A stretch of 64,000 nt of DNA from Candidatus Onthoplasma sp. (GTDB lineage: Bacteria > Bacillota > Clostridia > Christensenellales > UBA1242). The notes beneath the pieces were generated by a model that ran no database searches, was not told where the DNA came from, and saw only the letters and a program-made list of their open reading frames with translations. Position 1 is the first letter of the stretch, and every line of letters begins with the position of its first letter. The DNA lies in contig JBJETW010000009.1 in assembly GCA_051883515.1 (NCBI GenBank), positions 421-64,420 on the forward strand, given 5' to 3'. Both the position numbers and the translations under genes were made by a program. Below, piece after piece: positions 3,129-42,792 of the stretch.

Positions 3129-4144
3129 AAAATCCCCCAAATAAATGTCATAATTGTGATTGTGCTTCCTAAAACCACGCTACAAATCATAAATACAGAG
3201 TCAACAAATGATATTTTTGTGTTGGCCGTTAAAATTTTTGGAGATTGTTTGTCTTTTAAAATTTTTGTAAGTTGTGCTAAGTACAATTCCGCTTGCTCTG
3301 GTGGAAGATTTTTCAAGTTTAAGTGTTTTGCTGTGGAGTGGACATTCATTTTTATCCGTTCCCTATAAATCTTTCGAGTGATTAAAATGTATAGATAAAT
3401 TAACAATAAAATTGAAATTGAACTTATGAATATGAAAATTAAAGTGTTAGAAAAGATTATATTTACAATTTTCATAATCCCTGGCAACAATTTGTCCACT
3501 GGCAAACAGTTAAAGAAGTTGTTCATGAAATGGATTATCATTGAAGGAATGATGCTGTCGGCGACCAATGTTGTGTATCCCATAAGTCCGCCCAAAATTG
3601 CAGTGTAGAAAAATTTGTTGATATTCATGTGTGTGAAGCCAAACAGAATTGAAGAAATCAATAAAGCGTATCTTGGATTTGTGAGTTTTTTGTTAGCATG
3701 CAACATAATTCCTCTAAACAAAAATTCTTCACATATTCCAGGCAAAATTGCAGAAAAGAAAAATTCAAACATCAAATCAGAACCGACATTTGCTTGTATT
3801 GAACTTAGACTTTCAAATCCAAACAATGAGATAACTGTTTGAGATGCTACCGCCACAAAAAAGTTTAAAATTGTTAAAATAACGCCGAGAATTAAAGTTA
3901 ATATAAGGATTTTCCCATTTATTTTTTTAAAACCGCAATCCACAAAAGTTTGTTTGATATTTTTCGAGATAAAAAGTGTATATAATAACAAAGGGATTGC
4001 AAACATTGTCATTATTTGCACCAAGAACGACGCCAATGCATCATTTGTTATGATTTGCATATATTCAAGCAAAAAAATAACGGCAATGGAAGTCATTGCA
4101 ATAAAGAATATTAAATTTAACTTGAATAATTTGCTGTTTTTCAT
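3125..4144 (-). CDS. CPBP-family intramembrane glutamic endopeptidase (CAAX protease-like)
   Basis: Polytopic membrane protein with EEFLFRG, FGFTH and HFMNN motifs. Confidence 0.8.
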   Translation of the reverse strand: MKNSKLFKLNLIFFIAMTSIAVIFLLEYMQIITNDALASFLVQIMTMFAIPLLLYTLFISKNIKQTFVDCGFKKINGKILILTLILGVILTILNFFVAVASQTVISLFGFESLSSIQANVGSDLMFEFFFSAILPGICEEFLFRGIMLHANKKLTNPRYALLISSILFGFTHMNINKFFYTAILGGLMGYTTLVADSIIPSMIIHFMNNFFNCLPVDKLLPGIMKIVNIIFSNTLIFIFISSISILLLIYLYILITRKIYRERIKMNVHSTAKHLNLKNLPPEQAELYLAQLTKILKDKQSPKILTANTKISFVDSVFMICSVVLGSTITIMTFIWGIL

Positions 4145-4145
4145 A

Positions 4146-4898
4146 TCACATAAAGAAATTTATATAAATCCAAATTCCACTTAGAATCAAAAATGCCAAA
4201 ACTGTCCCAATAATAACAGGAAGGGTGAATTTTTGCTTTTTGCTTTTTTTGTTTTGTTTTATTATAACAGAAATGATGAAAATTAAGTAAGCAATTGCTA
4301 AGATAATTCCAAAAATCTTGTATATTAAACTCGAAGAATATAAACTTACATTGAAATAATTTAATGTTAAAGCAAGCAGGTTATTGCACGCGTGAAGGGT
4401 GATACAATATATTATGTTGTCTGTCAATGACATTATGACCCCAAGCAACAAAGCGAACAAGAAAGGATAAATTGTTTGATGAATTGAGAAGTGAAAAAGT
4501 GAAAAGAAAATGCTTGTCACAAAAATTGCAAATGCTTGTCCATATTTTGACAATTTTCTTTGAATTAAACCTCTAAACATCAACTCTTCGCAAACAGCAG
4601 GGAGTAAAACAAACGAAATGAGAGATATTGCAAATGTTGTTGGATTTAGTTCATATGGGAAAGGGGTTGGATTAAAACCAATCTCAGTGAACCAAACTTG
4701 TGTTATTGCTTGAATTGGATATAAACTAAAAAAAGTTGCTATTCCAATAATCAAAGTTAAACCGACAAAAGATAATTTTGGTTTTTTAAAAACTTTATCT
4801 TTATTTAAAATTTGGAAAAATATGAAAATCAGCAACAAAAAAACATCAAGAATTGCAGTTGATAACAAATATTTTAAAGCTTGATTAATACTTTCCAT
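4146..4898 (-). CDS. CPBP-family intramembrane glutamic endopeptidase, tandem paralog
   Basis: EELMFRGL, FSLFH and HACNN motifs. Polytopic. Confidence 0.8.
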   Translation of the reverse strand: MESINQALKYLLSTAILDVFLLLIFIFFQILNKDKVFKKPKLSFVGLTLIIGIATFFSLYPIQAITQVWFTEIGFNPTPFPYELNPTTFAISLISFVLLPAVCEELMFRGLIQRKLSKYGQAFAIFVTSIFFSLFHFSIHQTIYPFLFALLLGVIMSLTDNIIYCITLHACNNLLALTLNYFNVSLYSSSLIYKIFGIILAIAYLIFIISVIIKQNKKSKKQKFTLPVIIGTVLAFLILSGIWIYINFFM

Positions 4899-4932
4899 AA
4901 ATTTATTATACTATAACAAATTTAATTTTCAA
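4899..4932 (-). promoter_or_regulatory. Sigma70-type promoter placed for a leaderless transcript of the 4898 CDS
   Basis: On the minus strand: TTGAAA (4927-4932), 16 nt, TATAAT (4905-4910), 6 nt, ATG (4896-4898). No SD. Confidence 0.5.
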
Positions 4933-4960
4933 ACAAAAAATTCCGATTTTTTAAATTTCG

Positions 4961-5662
4961 CTATTTTTCAGACTCGTTCTGAGATTTTGTTTTTTCTTGT
5001 TTTTTTGTTAGTTTTTTTTCAAGTTTAAACAAAAAAATCAAATCCAATATCACAACATTTATTAAAATTATCCAATCAACTGCCGTGAGTGCTGACCAGT
5101 CCACAAGTTCACTTCCAAGGAAACAAAACATTCCGATTTCCACAATATGATAAACGATTGTGACAAGCATAAGGTACCAATATTTCATTTTTGTCATACC
5201 CGCTACCAAACATAATGCTTCGTCGGGGAATCCAGGAAGAATGTAAAAGAAGGGGAGAAGAATTTTGCTCTTTGTGTCGACAGCGATTTGCGCTAATTCA
5301 AAATCTTTTTTGCCAACTAATTTTTTTGCTAATTTTTCTCCAAATTTGTCGCCAATGACAAATAATATTGTTGAAGCAAAAACAATATCCAACATAGAGA
5401 CAACAAATGTCCAAATTGGTCCGAAAATTGCTATTCCAAGTAGAATTAAAGAGGTGTTTAAAAGAGGGACAAAACACAACAAGACCAAACAAATTAGTTG
5501 AATTAAAAAATAAGTTAAAAGTCCCCATTGTTTTGTGCTTAGTATAACAGATTTTAAGTTTTCAAAATTTGTTATGCCAAGACCTTTCAAAACAAAGAAT
5601 ATACACACAGAAATAACGGCGAACAATAGAATCACCGCACAGATTTTTAGCCATTTTTTCAT
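4961..5662 (-). CDS. TVP38/TMEM64 (DedA-related) family membrane protein
   Basis: Multi-TM protein with an LPGFPDEALCLVAGMTKM segment typical of the family. Confidence 0.65.
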   Translation of the reverse strand: MKKWLKICAVILLFAVISVCIFFVLKGLGITNFENLKSVILSTKQWGLLTYFLIQLICLVLLCFVPLLNTSLILLGIAIFGPIWTFVVSMLDIVFASTILFVIGDKFGEKLAKKLVGKKDFELAQIAVDTKSKILLPFFYILPGFPDEALCLVAGMTKMKYWYLMLVTIVYHIVEIGMFCFLGSELVDWSALTAVDWIILINVVILDLIFLFKLEKKLTKKQEKTKSQNESEK

Positions 5663-29452: not shown

Positions 29453-29459
29453 CATAATA

Positions 29460-29617
29460 TCCTATAAGCAAAGTGGCGATTTGCTTGGAAGTGTTAAAAT
29501 GACACTCGCTTAAACTTGGCGAAATAAGTAATTAAGGTGGGATTTATCCAATTAGGGTGGAACCGCGGTTGATTGTCAATCGTCCCTTGTCCATGATTTT
29601 TTTGGGCAAGGGTTTTT
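29460..29617 (+). promoter_or_regulatory. T-box riboswitch leader (glycine specifier, probably GGC at 29518-29520)
   Basis: Conserved T-box sequence AATTAGGGTGGAACCGCGG (about 29560-29578). Terminator cccttgtcc/gggcaaggg plus T-run (29584-29617). It lies upstream of glyQS. Confidence 0.85.
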
Positions 29618-29747: not shown

Positions 29748-31142
29748 ATGGATAAAAATTTAACAATGGACAAATTAATTGCACTTTGCAAAAACAGAGG
29801 ATTTATTTTTGCGGGAAGTGAAATTTATGACGGATTGGCAAACACATGGGATTATGGTCCGCTTGGAGTTGAACTTAAAAATAATATAAAAAAATCTTGG
29901 TGGCAAAAATTCGTCACTGAAAACAAATATAATGTTGGTCTTGACAGTGCCATTTTAATGAATCCAAGAGTGTGGAAAGCTAGCGGGCATTTGGGTGGAT
30001 TTTCTGACCCTTTGATGGATTGCAAATCTTGCAAATCACGACACAGAGCAGACAAATTGATTGAAGATTATGTGAAGGACAACAATCTTGATATCAATAT
30101 TCAAGGTTGGGAAACCGACAATGACAAAATGGAAAAGTTTATTTTTGACAACAAAGTTCCATGTCCAATTTGTGGAAAACACGACTTTACACCAATCAGA
30201 AAATTTAACCTTATGTTCAAAACATTCCAAGGAGTCACAGAAGAAACAGCTTCAACAATTTATTTACGACCTGAAACAGCACAAGGAATTTTTGTCAATT
30301 TCAAAAATATTCTTCGAACAACAAGAAGCAAAATGCCAATGGGAGTTGGGCAAATTGGAAAATCATTTAGAAATGAAATCACCCCAGGAAATTTTATTTT
30401 CAGAATGCGTGAATTTGAGCAAATGGAACTTGAATTTTTCTGTGAACCTGGTTCGGATTTAGAGTGGTTTAACTATTGGAGAAATTTCTGCAAAAACTGG
30501 TTGCTTTCAATGGGAATAAAAGAAGAAAATTTGCGTTTGCGTGACCACTCAAAAGAAGAATTATGTTTCTATTCAAAAGCAACAACAGACTTTGAATATT
30601 TGTTTCCATTCGGTTGGGGCGAACTTTGGGGAGTTGCAGACAGAACAGATTATGATTTAAATCAACACGCAAAAGAATCAAAAGAGAGTTTGGAATATCT
30701 TGACCCAATCACAAATCAAAAATATGTCCCATATGTTATTGAACCTTCTCTTGGGGTTGACAGAATGTTTTTGGCTACCATGTGCGATGCATACAATGAA
30801 GAAGATTTGGGAGATGGTGACATAAGAGTCGTTTTGAAACTTGCTCCACATCTTGCTCCTTATAAGGTTGCAGTTTTGCCTTTATCAAAAAAGTTGAGCG
30901 ATAAAGCAGACGAAATTTATAGTAAATTATTAAAGAAATTCCCTTGCACATATGATGAGTCGGGCTCAATCGGAAAGAGATATAGAAGACAAGATGAAAT
31001 CGGAACACCATTCTGCGTGACAATTGATTTTGACACATTGGAAGACGAATCTGTGACAATCAGAGATAGAGACACTATGGAACAAATTCGTTTGCCAATC
31101 AGCGAATTGGAAAACTATATTGCTGAAAAAATTAAATTTTAA
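29748..31142 (+). CDS. glyQS: Glycine--tRNA ligase (homodimeric GlyQS type)
   Basis: N-terminus [40 protein letters not shown]. Class II motifs. 464 aa. AAAGGAGAA SD. Confidence 0.95.
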
Positions 31143-32714: not shown

Positions 32715-33029
32715 ATGGATACAGTATGTAGAAAATATAGTTGCATGTATAACGAAAACGCGAAATGTTCAAGGTCGCATCTTCAAGTTTCAAAAAATGC
32801 AGATTGCTTTGATATAAAAATTGACAAACAAAAGCAAGTTGAAGATGTTTCACGAGACATGTTTTGCCACGAACCGGAAATTGCTCCATATCATCATTGC
32901 AGAAGAATGGATATTGCATGTGATAGCAAAGAATGCATTTTTTGGGAAAATGGACAATGTTTTTCAAATGGAATTTTTGTTGGAAGTGAAAAAAAAGATG
33001 CCCCTTGCAATAGTTTTGTGCCAAGATAA
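32715..33029 (+). CDS. Cysteine-rich small protein, DUF1540-like (two C..C......C.....I.V......C..F repeats)
   Basis: CRKYSCMYNENAKCSRSHLQV...DCFD and CDSKECIFWENGQCFSNGIFVGSEKKDAPCNSF. No obvious SD, so the start is uncertain. Confidence 0.5.
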   Translation: MDTVCRKYSCMYNENAKCSRSHLQVSKNADCFDIKIDKQKQVEDVSRDMFCHEPEIAPYHHCRRMDIACDSKECIFWENGQCFSNGIFVGSEKKDAPCNSFVPR

Positions 33030-33045
33030 TAATAAGTGATTTTCG

Positions 33046-33074
33046 TTGACAAAAATACAAGTGCATGATAAAAT
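33046..33074 (+). promoter_or_regulatory. Promoter of the leuS leader
   Basis: TTGACA (33046-33051), 17 nt, TGaTAAAAT (hexamer 33069-33074). Confidence 0.6.
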
Positions 33075-33080
33075 AAAGAC

Positions 33081-33116
33081 ATGAATATTAAAGTTTTAGC
33101 ATTGCTATTATTGTGA
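33081..33116 (+). CDS. Candidate leaderless leucine-rich leader peptide MNIKVLALLLL*
   Basis: ATG lies 6 nt after the -10. Codons are atg aat att aaa gtt tta gca ttg cta tta ttg tga. Four consecutive Leu codons precede the stop. Confidence 0.45.
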   Translation: MNIKVLALLLL

Positions 33117-33166
33117 TTGTGCCAGAAATGGCACCCTGTTTGGTTGTGCTGAAATTGTTATAAAAT

Positions 33167-33194
33167 TTGACAGCATGACCACTGTCAATTTTTT
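33167..33194 (+). terminator. Attenuator terminator upstream of leuS
   Basis: ttgacag-catgacca-ctgtcaa plus T6. It lies inside the leuS 5' leader, about 40 nt before the leuS SD. Confidence 0.6.
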
Positions 33195-33235
33195 ATTATT
33201 AATTTGAGTTGTCTCAAAACATATAGGAGAAGTAT

Positions 33236-35641
33236 ATGAAAGAATATAATTTTAGCGAAATTGAAAAAAAATGGCAAAAATATTGGATTGATAACAATAG
33301 TTTTAAAGCGGAAAATGGTGGTGACAAAAAACCCTATTACATACTTGTTGAATTTCCATATCCATCTGGTGCAGGATTGCATGTTGGACATGTCAGAAGT
33401 TATACAGCTCAAGATGCACTTGCAAGAATGAAAAGAATGCAAGGTTATAATGTTCTTTATCCAATGGGTTGGGACGCGTTTGGTGCACCTGCTGAACAAT
33501 ACGCAATAAAGAACCATATTCACCCAAAACAAGCGGTAAAAGAGAATATTAAAACTTTTAAGTCGCAAATGATGAATTTGGGATTCTCGTTCGATTGGTC
33601 AAGAGAATTTTCAACAACCGACCCTGAATATTACAAATGGACTCAATGGCAGTTTTTGCAATTTTATAAACATGGAATGGCATATAAAGCTTCTGTTCCA
33701 GTAAACTGGTGTCCAAATTGCAAGACAGTTCTTTCAAATGAAGATGCTGCGGGCGGTGTGTGCGAAAGATGTGGAAAAAAAGTTATCCAAAAAGAAAAAT
33801 CTCAATGGATGCTCAGAATGAGCGACTATTCAGAAGATTTGTTGAAAGGTTTGAACGATACCAATTTTGCAGAAAAAGTGAAACTTGCTCAAATCAACTG
33901 GATTGGAAAATCCACCGGCGTTGAACTTGATGTTAATATTGAAGGTGGCGGACAATTTTCTATTTTTACAACGTGCATTGAGACGATTTATGGAATAACA
34001 TTTTTCGTTATTGCGCCAGATGGCAAACTAATTAAAGAACTCATGCCAAGAGTAAAAAACAAAGAAGAAGTTCAAAATTATATTGATGAGACCGCAAAAA
34101 AATCCAATTTGGATAGAACAATAAACACAAAGACAAAAACTGGTTGCAGACTGGAAGGACTTATGGCCATCAACCCTGTTAATGGCAAAAAAGTTCCAAT
34201 TTTCCTTGGAGATTTTGTGTTGGGAGACTATGGGACAGGTGCAGTTATGGCAGTTCCAAGTCATGACCAAAGAGACTTTGAGTATGCAAAAGAACATAAT
34301 CTAGAAATGATTCAAGTTATTTCTGGGGCAAGTGTTAGTGAACATGCTTTTGAAAAACAAGATTATCTTGGAAAAGGTTGCGTGCTCATAAACAGCGAAG
34401 AATTTAATGGCTTAACGGTTGAACAAGCAAAAGAAGCAATAACTGATAAACTTGAAAAGATGGGAATTGCAAGACGTGTAAACAACTATAAAATGAGAGA
34501 TTGGATTTTTTCAAGACAAAGATTTTGGGGTGAACCAATTCCAATGATATATTGCGATAAATGCGGATGGGTCCCAATGGACGAAAAAGATTTGCCATTA
34601 CTTCTTCCTGATATCGCAGAATATGAACCAACAGACAATGGAGAAAGTCCACTCGCCAAAATCACTGATTGGGTAAACACGACGTGTCCAAAATGTGGTG
34701 GAAAGGCGAAACGAGAAACAGACACAATGCCAAACTGGGCAGGTTCAAGTTGGTATTTCTTGCGCTTTATGGATGCACACAACGACAAAGAGTTTGCTTC
34801 AATGGAAGCAATGAAATATTGGAATAAGGTGGACTGGTATAACGGCGGAATGGAGCATGCGGCAAGACATTTGTTGTATGCAAGATTTTGGGTGCAATTC
34901 CTTTATAACATTGGACTTGTGCCAAATAAAGAGATGATTTGGACAAGAGTAAGCCATGGAATGGTGCTCGGTTCAAATAATGAAAAAATGTCAAAATCAC
35001 GCGGAAATGTTGTAAATCCAGACGATATTGTAAGAGAGTATGGTGCTGACACTTTACGTGTTTATGAAATGTTTATGGGAGACTATCAACAAGACGTTCC
35101 TTGGAGCACTGAGTCTCTTAAAGGTTGTAAGAGATTTTTGGATAGAATTGTAAAACTTTCAAACAAACTCAACCAAAATGACGGATATAGCAAAGACCTT
35201 GAAATTTTGCAAAACAAGACAATTAAAAAAGTTGAGAACGATTTGTCAACAATGGCATATAACACCGCTGTTTCCTCACTTATGATTTTAACAAACGCAA
35301 TGGACGAAAAAGAAAGCATAACAAAACAAGATTATAAATTGTTGTTGACATTGTTAAATCCAATTGCTCCGCACATAACCGAAGAGTTAAATGCGGAATT
35401 AAAAGAAAAACCAATTTGCGAATCAATGTGGCCAAAGTACGATGAATCTAAAACTGTGGAAGCAGAAATTGAAATTCCGATTCAGGTGAATGGAAAATTG
35501 AGAGGTAAGATTGTTGTGAACAAAGATGCCACTCAAGATGAAATCAAAGAGAGTGCAGTTGAAGAAGTAAAAGATTTTATCACTTCCGAAATCAAAAAAA
35601 TAATTTATGTTCCAGGAAGAATATTTAATATCGTAGTTTAA
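33236..35641 (+). CDS. leuS: Leucine--tRNA ligase
   Basis: Class I HIGH-region variant (PYPSGAGLHVGHV) and KMSKS. 801 aa. TAGGAGAAG SD. Confidence 0.95.
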   Translation: MKEYNFSEIEKKWQKYWIDNNSFKAENGGDKKPYYILVEFPYPSGAGLHVGHVRSYTAQDALARMKRMQGYNVLYPMGWDAFGAPAEQYAIKNHIHPKQAVKENIKTFKSQMMNLGFSFDWSREFSTTDPEYYKWTQWQFLQFYKHGMAYKASVPVNWCPNCKTVLSNEDAAGGVCERCGKKVIQKEKSQWMLRMSDYSEDLLKGLNDTNFAEKVKLAQINWIGKSTGVELDVNIEGGGQFSIFTTCIETIYGITFFVIAPDGKLIKELMPRVKNKEEVQNYIDETAKKSNLDRTINTKTKTGCRLEGLMAINPVNGKKVPIFLGDFVLGDYGTGAVMAVPSHDQRDFEYAKEHNLEMIQVISGASVSEHAFEKQDYLGKGCVLINSEEFNGLTVEQAKEAITDKLEKMGIARRVNNYKMRDWIFSRQRFWGEPIPMIYCDKCGWVPMDEKDLPLLLPDIAEYEPTDNGESPLAKITDWVNTTCPKCGGKAKRETDTMPNWAGSSWYFLRFMDAHNDKEFASMEAMKYWNKVDWYNGGMEHAARHLLYARFWVQFLYNIGLVPNKEMIWTRVSHGMVLGSNNEKMSKSRGNVVNPDDIVREYGADTLRVYEMFMGDYQQDVPWSTESLKGCKRFLDRIVKLSNKLNQNDGYSKDLEILQNKTIKKVENDLSTMAYNTAVSSLMILTNAMDEKESITKQDYKLLLTLLNPIAPHITEELNAELKEKPICESMWPKYDESKTVEAEIEIPIQVNGKLRGKIVVNKDATQDEIKESAVEEVKDFITSEIKKIIYVPGRIFNIVV

Positions 35642-41063: not shown

Positions 41064-41154
41064 GGAGAGTTACTCAAGAGGTCGAAGAGGCGTCCCTGCT
41101 AAGGATGTAGGCGTAGAAATGCGCGCGAGGGTTCAAATCCCTCACTCTCCGCCA
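41064..41154 (+). tRNA. tRNA-Ser (anticodon GCT), class II with long variable arm, CCA encoded
   Basis: Acceptor GGAGAGT/ACTCTCC. Anticodon loop CTGCTAA. T arm GAGGG-TTCAAAT-CCCTC. Confidence 0.9.
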
Positions 41155-41159
41155 AAACA

Positions 41160-41361
41160 TCAAACTAGATGTTGATGAAGAGAGTAGGCATGAATGGCGT
41201 TGCTTTAGTGAGAAAAGGACAGTGTAAACTTTTCCAACACACATGTTGAAGGACACTTCTGAATCTGTAATTTAATAATAAGTGGTTGTTTTCAACAAAT
41301 TAGGTGGCACCGCGGTGGAGATATCTATCGTCCTAATGCATAATTGCATTGGGATTTTTTT
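41160..41361 (+). promoter_or_regulatory. T-box riboswitch leader with an aspartate (GAC) specifier
   Basis: TGATGAAGAGAG K-turn-like start. GAAG-GAC-A-CTTC specifier context (GAC at 41252-41254). T-box sequence AAATTAGGTGGCACCGCGG (41297-41315). Terminator cctaatgca/tgcattggg plus T7 (41331-41361). Confidence 0.85.
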
Positions 41362-41508
41362 ATTAAATTTTGTTTTGAATAAACAATTGGAAATCGGAAA
41401 ACACTTTTATACTTTTAATAAAAAAATTTAAAAAAATGTGCAAATTTATTGAAAAAAACTAAAAATTATGTTGTTTTATTAAAAAAAAATTGTAAAATTG
41501 GAGGAAAA

Positions 41509-42792
41509 ATGATTACAGAAATAAAAAATTTACAACCAGGAAGAGTTGAATTTCACGGAATGGTGGACACAATTCGAGACAAGAAAAACATGCAATTTGT
41601 TATTCTTAAAGATTTTTCAGGGAAAATTCAATTGTTCGTTGACAAGGTGAAATATCCTGAAATTGGTGAAAAATTTTCAAAAATGGTTCCAGGTTTCACA
41701 GTCAAAGTCAAGGGCGAATTGGTGTTGAGTGAATATGTGAAAATGGGCGGAAGAGAGGTTGTTGTTGACGATGTTGAAATCACAAGCAACGCAGAACCAA
41801 ATCCAATTGCAGAAGATTCAACTATTGATTACCGACTTGACTATCGTTGGCTTGACCTAAGAACAGACAAAAATTTATTGATGTTCAAAGTTCAAACGTG
41901 TTTTACAAACGCAATGAGAGAATTTTTGCTTGATAACGATTTTGTTGAAATTCATTCTCCAAAACTTATCGCAACGGCAAGCGAAAGTGGTGCAGAAGTT
42001 TTTCAAGTGAAATATTTTGACACATTTGCTTATCTTGCTCAATCTCCACAATTCTATAAACAAATGGCAATGGCTGGTGGTCTTGGAAGGATTTTTGAAT
42101 GCGGTCCAGTGTTTAGAGCTGAAAAATCACATTCAAGAAAGCACACAACTGAATTCACCGGATTTGATTTGGAATTTTCAAATATTGACGGCGTGGAAGA
42201 CGTAATGCATGTTGAAGAAGATTTGTTGACATATGCTTTGGAAAAAGTTAGCGAAAAATATGGAGAAGAAATTAAACAATTGTTTGGGATTGACGTTGTT
42301 GTTCCAAGTTTGCCGTTCCCAAGAATGAAACTTGCTGATGTGTATAAAGAATTGGAAGAAAGATATGGATACACTTGTCCAAAAGAAGAACAAGACGATT
42401 TGACCACGGAAGCGGAAAAATTATGCAAACAATTGTCTCATGATAAATTTAATCATGAGTTTATATTCATAACAGATTATGGCGCAAGAAAACGCGCTTT
42501 CTATCACATGAGAAAAGATGGAATCCCACAAGGATATGATTTAATTTGGAAAGGTGTTGAAGTCACAACAGGTGCGCAACGCGAACATAGATATGACGTT
42601 TTGTGTCAACAAGCAAAAGAAAAAGGGTTAGATGAAGACGTTAAGTTCTATCTCCAATTCTTCAAATATGGTTGTCCACCACATGGCGGATTTGGGCTCG
42701 GTCTTGACAGAATAACAATGAATTTGCTTGAACTTGAAAATTTGAAAGAAGCAATGTTCTTGTTTAGAGGGCCAGAGAGATTGACTCCATAA
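41509..42792 (+). CDS. aspS: Aspartate--tRNA ligase, archaeal/type-2 (class IIb, about 427 aa)
   Basis: FRAEKSHSRKHTTEFTGFDLE (motif 2) and GGFGLGLDRITM...FRGPERLTP C-terminus. The GAC specifier in the leader supports Asp. GGAGGA SD before ATG 41509. AsnRS is not fully excluded. Confidence 0.8.
   Translation: MITEIKNLQPGRVEFHGMVDTIRDKKNMQFVILKDFSGKIQLFVDKVKYPEIGEKFSKMVPGFTVKVKGELVLSEYVKMGGREVVVDDVEITSNAEPNPIAEDSTIDYRLDYRWLDLRTDKNLLMFKVQTCFTNAMREFLLDNDFVEIHSPKLIATASESGAEVFQVKYFDTFAYLAQSPQFYKQMAMAGGLGRIFECGPVFRAEKSHSRKHTTEFTGFDLEFSNIDGVEDVMHVEEDLLTYALEKVSEKYGEEIKQLFGIDVVVPSLPFPRMKLADVYKELEERYGYTCPKEEQDDLTTEAEKLCKQLSHDKFNHEFIFITDYGARKRAFYHMRKDGIPQGYDLIWKGVEVTTGAQREHRYDVLCQQAKEKGLDEDVKFYLQFFKYGCPPHGGFGLGLDRITMNLLELENLKEAMFLFRGPERLTP

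Follow-up and report, generated by a model that had tools for sequence, protein, structure and literature searches.

In the 64,000-nucleotide stretch of contig JBJETW010000009.1 of Candidatus Onthoplasma sp. analyzed here (the window, numbered from its first letter), the leucyl-tRNA synthetase gene leuS is preceded by a leader with a promoter, a short Leu-rich open reading frame (ORF), a hairpin and an intrinsic terminator that competes with an antiterminator (Table 1). Here it is proposed that this leader is probably a leaderless, ribosome-mediated (leader-peptide) transcription attenuator of leuS; judging from sequence conservation and folding calculations, it would most likely raise synthetase production when charged tRNA-Leu is short. 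The elements are present and conserved in two species, the antiterminator covaries between them, and the calculated energies shift toward read-through when a ribosome stalls on the Leu codons and toward termination when it reaches the stop codon. The attenuation of leuS by a leader peptide is a known mechanism that is unexpected in this bacterial group.

The -35 hexamer and the extended -10 element are separated by 17 nt, and the -10 lies 6 nt (aaagac) from the ATG of the leader ORF; this promoter scores 11/12 with a TG extension in a consensus scan. The ORF reads atg aat att aaa gtt tta gca ttg cta tta ttg tga, with Leu in 5/11 codons, at 33096-33098 and 33102-33113. Downstream, segments 2 and 3 form the antiterminator, a helix of 10 bp including two G.U pairs, which shares 33171-33173 with the terminator stem, so that the two structures are mutually exclusive. 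Segment 2 has two alternative partners, the 3' arm of hairpin 1 (33129-33134) and segment 1. The arms of the terminator stem span 33167-33188, followed by the T6 run (33189-33194), and the leader transcript up to the terminator is about 115 nt long. An earlier note on this DNA had already read the promoter layout, the ORF with its five Leu codons, the GTGCCA-GAAA-TGGCAC hairpin and the 10-bp pairing that excludes the terminator, and the sequence agrees with it on all of these; it had also placed the terminator and T6 correctly, at a distance of about 40 nt from the leuS Shine-Dalgarno (SD) sequence that needs correction, the T-run ending about 31 nt 5' of the SD and 41 nt 5' of the leuS ATG. 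Three terminator-like sites were found in the scan against 0.3 expected, the leader terminator being one of them. A U-rich stretch lies 3' of hairpin 1, which the scan flags as terminator-like in the window as well as in the second species described below, and hairpin 1 may act as a pause site coupling the ribosome to the polymerase. Homologues of the window leuS have Pfam domains of tRNA-synthetase class I, and one of them is annotated as leucyl-tRNA synthetase in one source.

Exact-protein look-ups located further contigs of the species complex of the window (L161, L162, L170, L171 and L172) and one contig of a second species (L163). The second species has a LeuS 82% identical to that of the window and a DUF1540 neighbour only about half identical, in the same gene order (rplI on the opposite strand, DUF1540, leuS). 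Its promoter and start read TTGACA, 17 nt, TGATAATAT, taaggc and ATG, and its ORF reads ATG AAA AAT TTG ACA CTA GCA CTG TTA TGT TAG (MKNLTLALLC*), with 4 Leu in 10 codons. This ORF is one codon (3 nt) shorter than that of the window, the frame being kept, and it ends in TAG. Leu6, Leu8 and Leu9 are kept with synonymous first-position changes only (TTA/CTA, TTG/CTG and CTA/TTA), while residues 2-5 are all different. Because MAFFT shifted the ORF part by 6 nt between the two species, the codon alignment was made by hand, and the formal count of pairs was restricted to the well-aligned 3' part of the leader.

In that 3' part, all variants and L163 have one and the same terminator stem and T-run. 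The terminator loop is CACAAGGG in L163 and CATGACCA in the window, and the 5' arm of the antiterminator is CTTTGTGCTG in L163 and GGTTGTGCTG in the window. All 10 antiterminator pairs are 100% paired in an alignment of the window, L170 and L163, through two double changes (G-C>C-G and G-C>U.G) and two one-sided changes (U.G>U-A and G.U>G-C); these covarying changes sit in the terminator loop, where the terminator itself sets no constraint. Hairpin 1 of L163 is GTGCC-AAAATC-GGCAC, extendable to 9 pairs, and the ORF stop abuts it in both species (2-3 nt). The segment 1:2 pairing is also possible in L163 (CUAGCAC/GUGCUGG), with a U-A replaced by C-G, and is absent from the minimum free energy (MFE) fold of L163. 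A further change in L163, U>C at the first base of the hairpin 1 3' arm, gives a weaker hairpin 1 and a better pairing with segment 2, which fits the relay model set out below. The terminator scan is positive in L163 too (1064-1085 plus T6), and the blocks conserved between both leaders are GTGCCN(4-6)GGCAC, TTGTGCTG and TTTGACAGCN(5-8)CTGTCAATTTTTT. The leaders are 72% identical over the longer sequence and 84% over aligned columns, compared with a mean of 57% and a maximum of 63% for shuffled leaders, 60% for the rplI-DUF1540 spacer and 34% for fourfold-degenerate leuS sites; by these comparators, the conservation of the leader between the two species greatly exceeds what neutrality would predict.

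The variation within the species complex follows the same pattern. Samples holding this organism include SRR30616822, SRR25667333 and the source of GCA_019973165.1. L161 is identical to the window, and the leuS of L162 is 93.9% identical at the nucleotide level, with 148 differences (6.2% of nucleotides) and 122 synonymous codon changes. No difference separates L162 from the window in 33030-33195 (166 nt), and nine are found in the next 40 nt after the T-run; by our own arithmetic, the chance of zero differences in 166 nt at the leuS rate is about 3e-5. When L162, L170, L171 and L172 are pooled, 33030-33194 contains 12 variable sites, listed in Table 1, and the -35, the TG, the -10, the ATG, the stop, all stems and the T-run are free of them. 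Eleven of the 12 fall within the 73/165 positions on which the model places no demand (binomial p about 9e-4, again our own calculation), and the twelfth keeps Leu. The leader ORF of L170 and L172 encodes MNNKVLALLLL*, with the synonymous change in Leu8. The region from the T-run to the leuS ATG (33196-33235) has two haplotypes differing at 9 positions, whose combinations with the leader haplotypes are reassorted: the variant leader occurs with an L162-type untranslated region (UTR) in L170 and with a window-type UTR in L172, indicating recombination within the species complex. A hairpin past the terminator (33205-33218), seen in the first fold, is disrupted in L162 and was dropped from the model.

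The ATG of the leader ORF lies at the predicted transcription start, an arrangement also used by long genes of the window. Out of 2331 ATG triplets on both strands, 11 have a promoter of at least 10/12 ending 5-8 nt upstream; eight of these open ORFs of 197-763 codons without SD (4898-, 5662-, 17450+, 23021+, 35801+, 45682-, 52876- and 53040+), and one other is the leader ORF at 33081. About one gene in five in the window appears leaderless, including the gene just downstream of leuS. Judging from these counts, leaderless starts are normal in this genome, and the promoter-to-ATG geometry of the leader ORF is, in the window, almost specific to genuine genes. Its 6-nt spacing after the -10 is constant in all variants and in L163, though 4/6 of these nucleotides vary. 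The long ORFs are intact under the standard genetic code (table 11) and TGA ends 4/34 genes; therefore, the TGA of the leader ORF is a true stop. The view in the earlier note that a leaderless start is unusual here does not hold, since eight long genes share the geometry, and its proposal of a ribosome-mediated attenuator with a leaderless start is supported by the conservation in L163, the strain polymorphism and the habit of this genome of placing an ATG at the predicted +1. The many seemingly leaderless genes of this uncultured gut lineage matter for gene calling and start annotation in metagenome-assembled genomes (MAGs).

The direction of the control was derived from folding. In the ribosome-free fold of 33081-33195 (MFE -31.1 kcal/mol), 33092-33107 pairs with 33141-33156, enclosing hairpin 1, and the terminator is formed; the best antiterminated fold of the window has -29.5 kcal/mol, which leaves the ribosome-free terminator favoured by 1.6 kcal/mol. 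A ribosome was then represented by masking 13 or 15 nt beyond the first P-site base. With the ribosome at Leu6 to Leu10 of the window ORF, the antiterminator is favoured by about 6 kcal/mol, and with the ribosome at Leu11 or the stop by 1.6-2.4 kcal/mol. In L163, the antiterminator is favoured by 1.4-1.8 kcal/mol with the ribosome at Leu4 to Leu8, and the terminator by 4.4-4.9 kcal/mol with the ribosome at Cys10 or the stop. In both species, the calculated balance lies about 4 to 7 kcal/mol further toward the terminator for a ribosome at the stop codon than for one on the early Leu codons, the window equilibrium being not fully switched. In L163, the freed 3' arm of hairpin 1 and segment 2 form a 10-bp helix (AUCGGCACGG/UUGUGCUGGU), the counterpart of the alternative TGGCAC/GTGCTG pairing that had been pointed out before in the window. 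In these masked folds, stalling on Leu codons favours read-through and completion of the peptide favours termination, in the same direction in both species. The sign of regulation, which had been considered not derivable by eye, can be predicted in this way, and the predicted sign is the physiologically sensible one for a synthetase.

According to the proposed mechanism, we infer that transcription would start at or next to the A of the ATG at 33081, and that the 11-codon ORF would consequently be translated from a leaderless mRNA. Leu accounts for 5/10 codons after the ATG, and a scarcity of charged tRNA-Leu would stall the ribosome on the early Leu codons (Leu6 and Leu8-10). In the stalled state, hairpin 1 would stay folded and segment 1 would be covered, leaving segment 2 free for segment 3; the resulting antiterminator would block the terminator, and RNA polymerase would continue into leuS. 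With plentiful Leu-tRNA, the ribosome would reach the stop codon 2 nt before hairpin 1, open the 5' arm of the hairpin and depart. Segment 2 would then pair with the freed hairpin 1 3' arm or, after ribosome release, with segment 1, and segment 3 would be left for the terminator, ending transcription before leuS. Termination in vivo, a response of leuS to leucine and a pausing role of hairpin 1 would be parts of this scheme.

Table 1. Positions of the leader elements, the variable sites of the species complex and the T-boxes in the window.
Feature	Position	Strand	Basis or remark
-35 hexamer TTGACA	33046-33051	+	Promoter scan; invariant in same-species variants and L163
Extended -10, TG-a-TAAAAT	33066-33074	+	Sequence and promoter scan; invariant in variants; TGATAATAT in L163 at equal spacing
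Leader ORF MNIKVLALLLL*	33081-33116	+	ATG at predicted transcription start
Segment 1, within leader ORF	33092-33107	+	Able to pair with 33141-33156 (MFE fold), a putative anti-antiterminator in ribosome-free RNA
Hairpin 1, GTGCCA-GAAA-TGGCAC	33119-33134	+	Fold -8.7 kcal/mol; 2 nt past ORF stop codon
Segment 2, antiterminator 5' arm, GGTTGTGCTG	33142-33151	+	Folding and alignment
Segment 3, antiterminator 3' arm, CAGCATGACC	33171-33180	+	Overlaps terminator 5' arm and loop
Intrinsic terminator TTGACAG-CATGACCA-CTGTCAA plus T6	33167-33194	+	Terminator scans
leuS Shine-Dalgarno AGGAG	33225-33229	+	Read from sequence
leuS, leucyl-tRNA synthetase, 801 aa, proposed regulated gene	33236-35641	+	ORF list
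Variable sites	33056, 33061, 33062		Promoter spacer
Variable sites	33075, 33077, 33078, 33080		-10 to ATG, length constant
Variable site	33088		Codon 3, Ile>Asn
Variable site	33104		Leu8 TTG>TTA, synonymous
Variable site	33127		Hairpin 1 loop, A>G
Variable sites	33159, 33162		Loop inside antiterminator
T-box	29455-29590		Upstream of glyQS (29748-31142); 43 bits vs gathering threshold 93
T-box	41163-41338		Upstream of non-discriminating, archaeal-type aspS (41449-42792); 79 bits vs gathering threshold 93

No T-box or other credible Rfam match was found at E<=10 in 32950-33300 of the window (4227 Rfam families) or in 930-1110 of L163. The hits at this level in both leaders were chance-level only, to unrelated small RNA (sRNA) and microRNA models; no Rfam leader-peptide family (e.g., Leu_leader, leu/phe leader) matched either leader, and a regular expression for the T-box core (GGTGGTACCGCG-type) had no match in the leader, which shares no detectable sequence with any curated Rfam family. 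T-box, riboswitch and sRNA readings were rejected on the grounds of these negative scans and of the absence of conserved unpaired sequence. The same T-box model finds two T-boxes elsewhere in the window, upstream of glyQS and aspS, both below the gathering threshold, and default Rfam annotation would therefore miss them. The organism therefore uses T-boxes, but not for leuS. This is in line with the earlier note, which had seen no T-box core at leuS and had reported T-boxes at the other two genes; both are there. A tRNA-Ser(GCT) gene (41064-41154) lies only about 10 nt 5' of the aspS T-box leader and may be co-transcribed with it or supply its promoter.

The distribution of the leader among relatives is narrow. 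LeuS-based scans, covering one genome per species plus metagenome contigs, gave 160 loci, all at most 81% identical and all from gut MAGs of uncultured bacteria that are labelled Bacilli, Tenericutes or Clostridia, among them Clostridium sp. CAG:594; a copy of the leader was absent from all 160. Among about 165 leuS loci inspected, only two species have the block of promoter, short ORF, hairpin and terminator. Searches by regular expression or nhmmer profile over about 169 loci and the whole window gave no further copy, so within the window the leader is neither repeated nor mobile. A Leu-codon ORF with compensatory changes in the pairings, as the earlier note had envisaged for relatives, is present in L163; the leuS loci examined from species other than these two are without the leader. 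Among the leuS loci, 106/163 have an upstream ORF ending at most 30 nt from leuS, and seven related loci contain the T-box core sequence.

Other relatives with the rplI-DUF1540-leuS order have a DUF1540-leuS spacer of only 86-109 nt. In one of these (L164), the spacer consists of the DUF1540 terminator, a promoter homologous to that of the window (TTGACAAAAAT...TGATAAT) and an SD, with no leader; for this reason, the leader looks as if it had been added 3' of an older promoter and 5' of the SD, in a narrow branch only. The DUF1540 homologues P0123, P0124 and P0125 are at loci with 86-109 nt spacers without the leader or have a different neighbour, and for P0122 the contig stops before leuS. 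Look-ups of P0276 and P0277 gave no new leader, and no closer relatives were found with P0002.

In most relatives (L001-L160), a conserved gene for a multi-pass membrane protein lies immediately before leuS or shares a small overlap with it. In many relatives, short ORFs with a Leu run are seen about 155 nt 5' of leuS; they were rejected as out-of-frame readings of this gene (...NAFII..., aatgcttttattatt), which abuts leuS, and such spurious 'MLLL...' short ORFs are a trap for leader-peptide searches. A different, unrelated leuS leader was observed in L118 (LeuS 74% identical) at about 2300-2500; it comprises a promoter and a short ORF (MLRQYHTFGIYYDRCR*) preceded by an SD, and a strong terminator (AAAAACTAGTCAAATGACTAGTTTTTT) lies about 40 nt 5' of leuS. 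L116 and L117, which are close to L118, have the membrane-protein gene at that place instead. Directly 3' of leuS in L163, a large serine recombinase gene (Resolvase/Recombinase/Zn_ribbon_recom; 3702-5645) and HTH genes suggest that a mobile element inserted beside this locus. The DUF1540-like Cys-rich protein of the window (104 aa, 32715-33029) is a neighbour of rplI and leuS throughout the lineage, with more than 160 homologues at 60-74% identity; it had no NCBIfam match and only a faint DUF1540 match in Pfam.

Several observations weigh against the attenuator reading. Leu-rich short ORFs are not rare in this T-rich DNA: of the 486 window ORFs that start with ATG and have 8-15 codons, 8 contain five or more Leu (1.6%) and 3 contain LLLL, and the leader itself contains two further Leu-rich short ORFs that are not conserved in L163. 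These two, 33128-33163 (MAPCLVVLKLL*) and 33175-33207 (MTTVNFLLLI*), were set aside as chance products of T-rich sequence, their ATGs being absent in L163. The synonymous changes in the Leu codons are also compatible with RNA pairing alone (segment 1:2, or a small UAGC/GCUA hairpin) and are no proof of translation. As the leader is present in two species only, the covariation depends on one diverged sequence, and the shuffle control is weak, with 54/500 shuffles of these few sequences reaching the observed covariation value. The terminator stem is short and weak (7 bp, about -7 kcal/mol). The equilibrium of the window with the ribosome at the stop still lies 1.6 kcal/mol toward the antiterminator, and termination would therefore need kinetic control or ribosome release. 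The ribosome-free folds also differ, the terminator being favoured by 1.6 kcal/mol in the window and the antiterminator by 5.1 kcal/mol in L163, in the latter through pairing of UUGACA in the ORF with the terminator 3' arm.

Part of this evidence would also suit a real terminator/antiterminator switch set by something other than the translating ribosome, in which the ORF is untranslated and its Leu codons are incidental to segment 1; an RNA-binding protein on hairpin 1 (possibly LeuRS), polymerase speed and nucleoside triphosphate levels are candidate factors. The conservation and covariation show that the RNA structures matter without proving translation, the Leu-codon changes also preserve the segment 1:2 pairing, and Leu-rich short ORFs arise by chance in this DNA. 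Such a structure-only or factor-controlled attenuator is nevertheless unlikely, as it does not account for the exact 6-nt distance from the -10 to the ATG that all variants and L163 share with 4/6 nt variable, for a promoter-ATG geometry otherwise almost exclusive to real genes in the window, or for an ORF whose length differs by exactly one codon between species with the stop staying 2-3 nt before hairpin 1. Furthermore, the loop of hairpin 1 and the single-stranded linkers are unconserved, leaving no obvious protein- or ligand-binding motif, and the regulated gene is the synthetase for the very amino acid enriched in the ORF. It is much less probable still that the hairpins serve only to end DUF1540 transcription or as a constitutive insulator, with the ORF and the alternative pairing coincidental. 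The interval from the DUF1540 stop (33029) to the promoter has no terminator of its own, the DUF1540 gene of L164 has its own terminator, and by the scan the hairpin can also serve as a minus-strand terminator; however, a near-consensus promoter lies 5' of the terminator with no other promoter between the terminator and leuS, and every leuS transcript must therefore cross the terminator. In addition, the antiterminator keeps all its pairs by compensatory changes, and the region from promoter to T-run is invariant between strains differing at 6% of leuS positions.

A tRNA-sensing T-box derivative in a highly reduced or non-canonical form has in its favour that leuS is under T-box control in many Bacillota and that the T-box core is present in the seven related leuS loci mentioned above. 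It is hardly credible for the present leader, where the Rfam T-box model, which detects the glyQS and aspS T-boxes, gives nothing at E<=10 in either species, where no GGTGGTACCGCG-type core occurs, and where a transcript of about 115 nt has neither Stem I nor specifier loop and forms an antiterminator without bulge. Conservation of the ORF in two species and its probable translation would also be expected of a functional hydrophobic micropeptide, the hairpins being its terminator with partial read-through; yet residues 2-5 vary (NIKV, NNKV and KNLT), the C-terminus and the length differ, only the Leu positions are kept, and a function is unlikely to be encoded in 10-11 residues with no conserved position other than Leu, making this explanation extremely improbable too.

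Under the ribosome-mediated attenuator proposed here, a broader joint reading can be offered, tentatively and with some doubt, which combines a recent independent origin, the first Bacillota aminoacyl-tRNA synthetase gene under classical ribosome-mediated attenuation, and a relay design. The origin would be an insertion of about 115-155 nt between the ancestral leuS promoter and the SD in a narrow branch of an uncultured, reduced-genome, Bacilli-like gut lineage. The attenuator would fill the role that a T-box has for leuS in other Bacillota. In the relay, the terminating ribosome would melt a hairpin located 2 nt past the stop, and the freed 3' arm would capture the antiterminator. If this is true, classical attenuation of synthetase genes would not be limited to Proteobacteria and Actinobacteria and could arise de novo in a low-GC lineage with T-boxes on other synthetase genes; the leader would also be a compact (about 115 nt), young attenuator whose gain is traceable, as relatives keep the promoter and the gene order without it. 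The mechanism itself is textbook, and the conceptual gain is moderate.

Compared with known systems, a T-box leader (RF00230) has the same outcome, with synthetase expression increased at low charged tRNA through a terminator/antiterminator choice, and is used in this organism for glyQS and aspS. It differs by the direct sensing of uncharged tRNA via Stem I and the T-box bulge, neither of which is present in the leuS leader. The enterobacterial leuL/trpL leaders have a run of regulatory codons directly before the stop of the short ORF and the alternative pairings 1:2, 2:3 and 3:4. The present leader shares both characteristics, and its ribosome-free RNA in the window prefers 1:2 plus the terminator, like trp; it differs in the absence of an Rfam leader family match, in the leaderless start and in the synthetase target, and a ribosome at its stop would act through hairpin 1, not directly on segment 2. 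The pheM-pheST operon of E. coli is the textbook case of a synthetase operon under leader-peptide attenuation. Similarly to the present leader, it combines a leader peptide rich in the cognate amino acid with terminator/antiterminator alternatives, whereas it senses Phe, has a leader peptide with an SD that is not leaderless, belongs to Proteobacteria and is unrelated in sequence. A 2005 comparative study cited it as the gamma-proteobacterial example of synthetase attenuation and described the synthetase genes of Firmicutes as using T-boxes, with none then known under classical attenuation (PMC1262725).

The ilvL-ilvBNC leader of C. glutamicum is a leaderless three-hairpin attenuator with anti-antiterminator, antiterminator and terminator (PMC11857589). 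It is like the present one in its leaderless peptide, its three hairpin types, a first hairpin proposed as a pause element and control codons that include Leu; it differs in that it controls a biosynthetic operon and was analyzed by mutation, whereas the present leader is a computational prediction. In Streptomyces, classical attenuators upstream of leuS and trpS were predicted in 2005 by Seliverstov et al. (PMC1262725), and leuL2 encodes a leaderless peptide followed by a hairpin and a U stretch upstream of leuS, with the start mapped in S. lividans (PMC8079986). This leuL2-leuS arrangement shares with the present leader a Leu-run leader peptide (MRAVRLLLSEPR, 12 aa), the leaderless start, the hairpin and U stretch, the position directly 5' of leuS and the presumed logic. 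It belongs to another phylum (high-GC Actinobacteria) and no sequence relationship was found, which makes convergence the presumed explanation. In the present leader, an extra relay hairpin lies between the stop codon and the antiterminator, and this leader occurs only in two species of a low-GC, Bacilli-like gut lineage. Streptomyces leuL2-leuS is the closest precedent, and the design of the leuS leader is not unprecedented.

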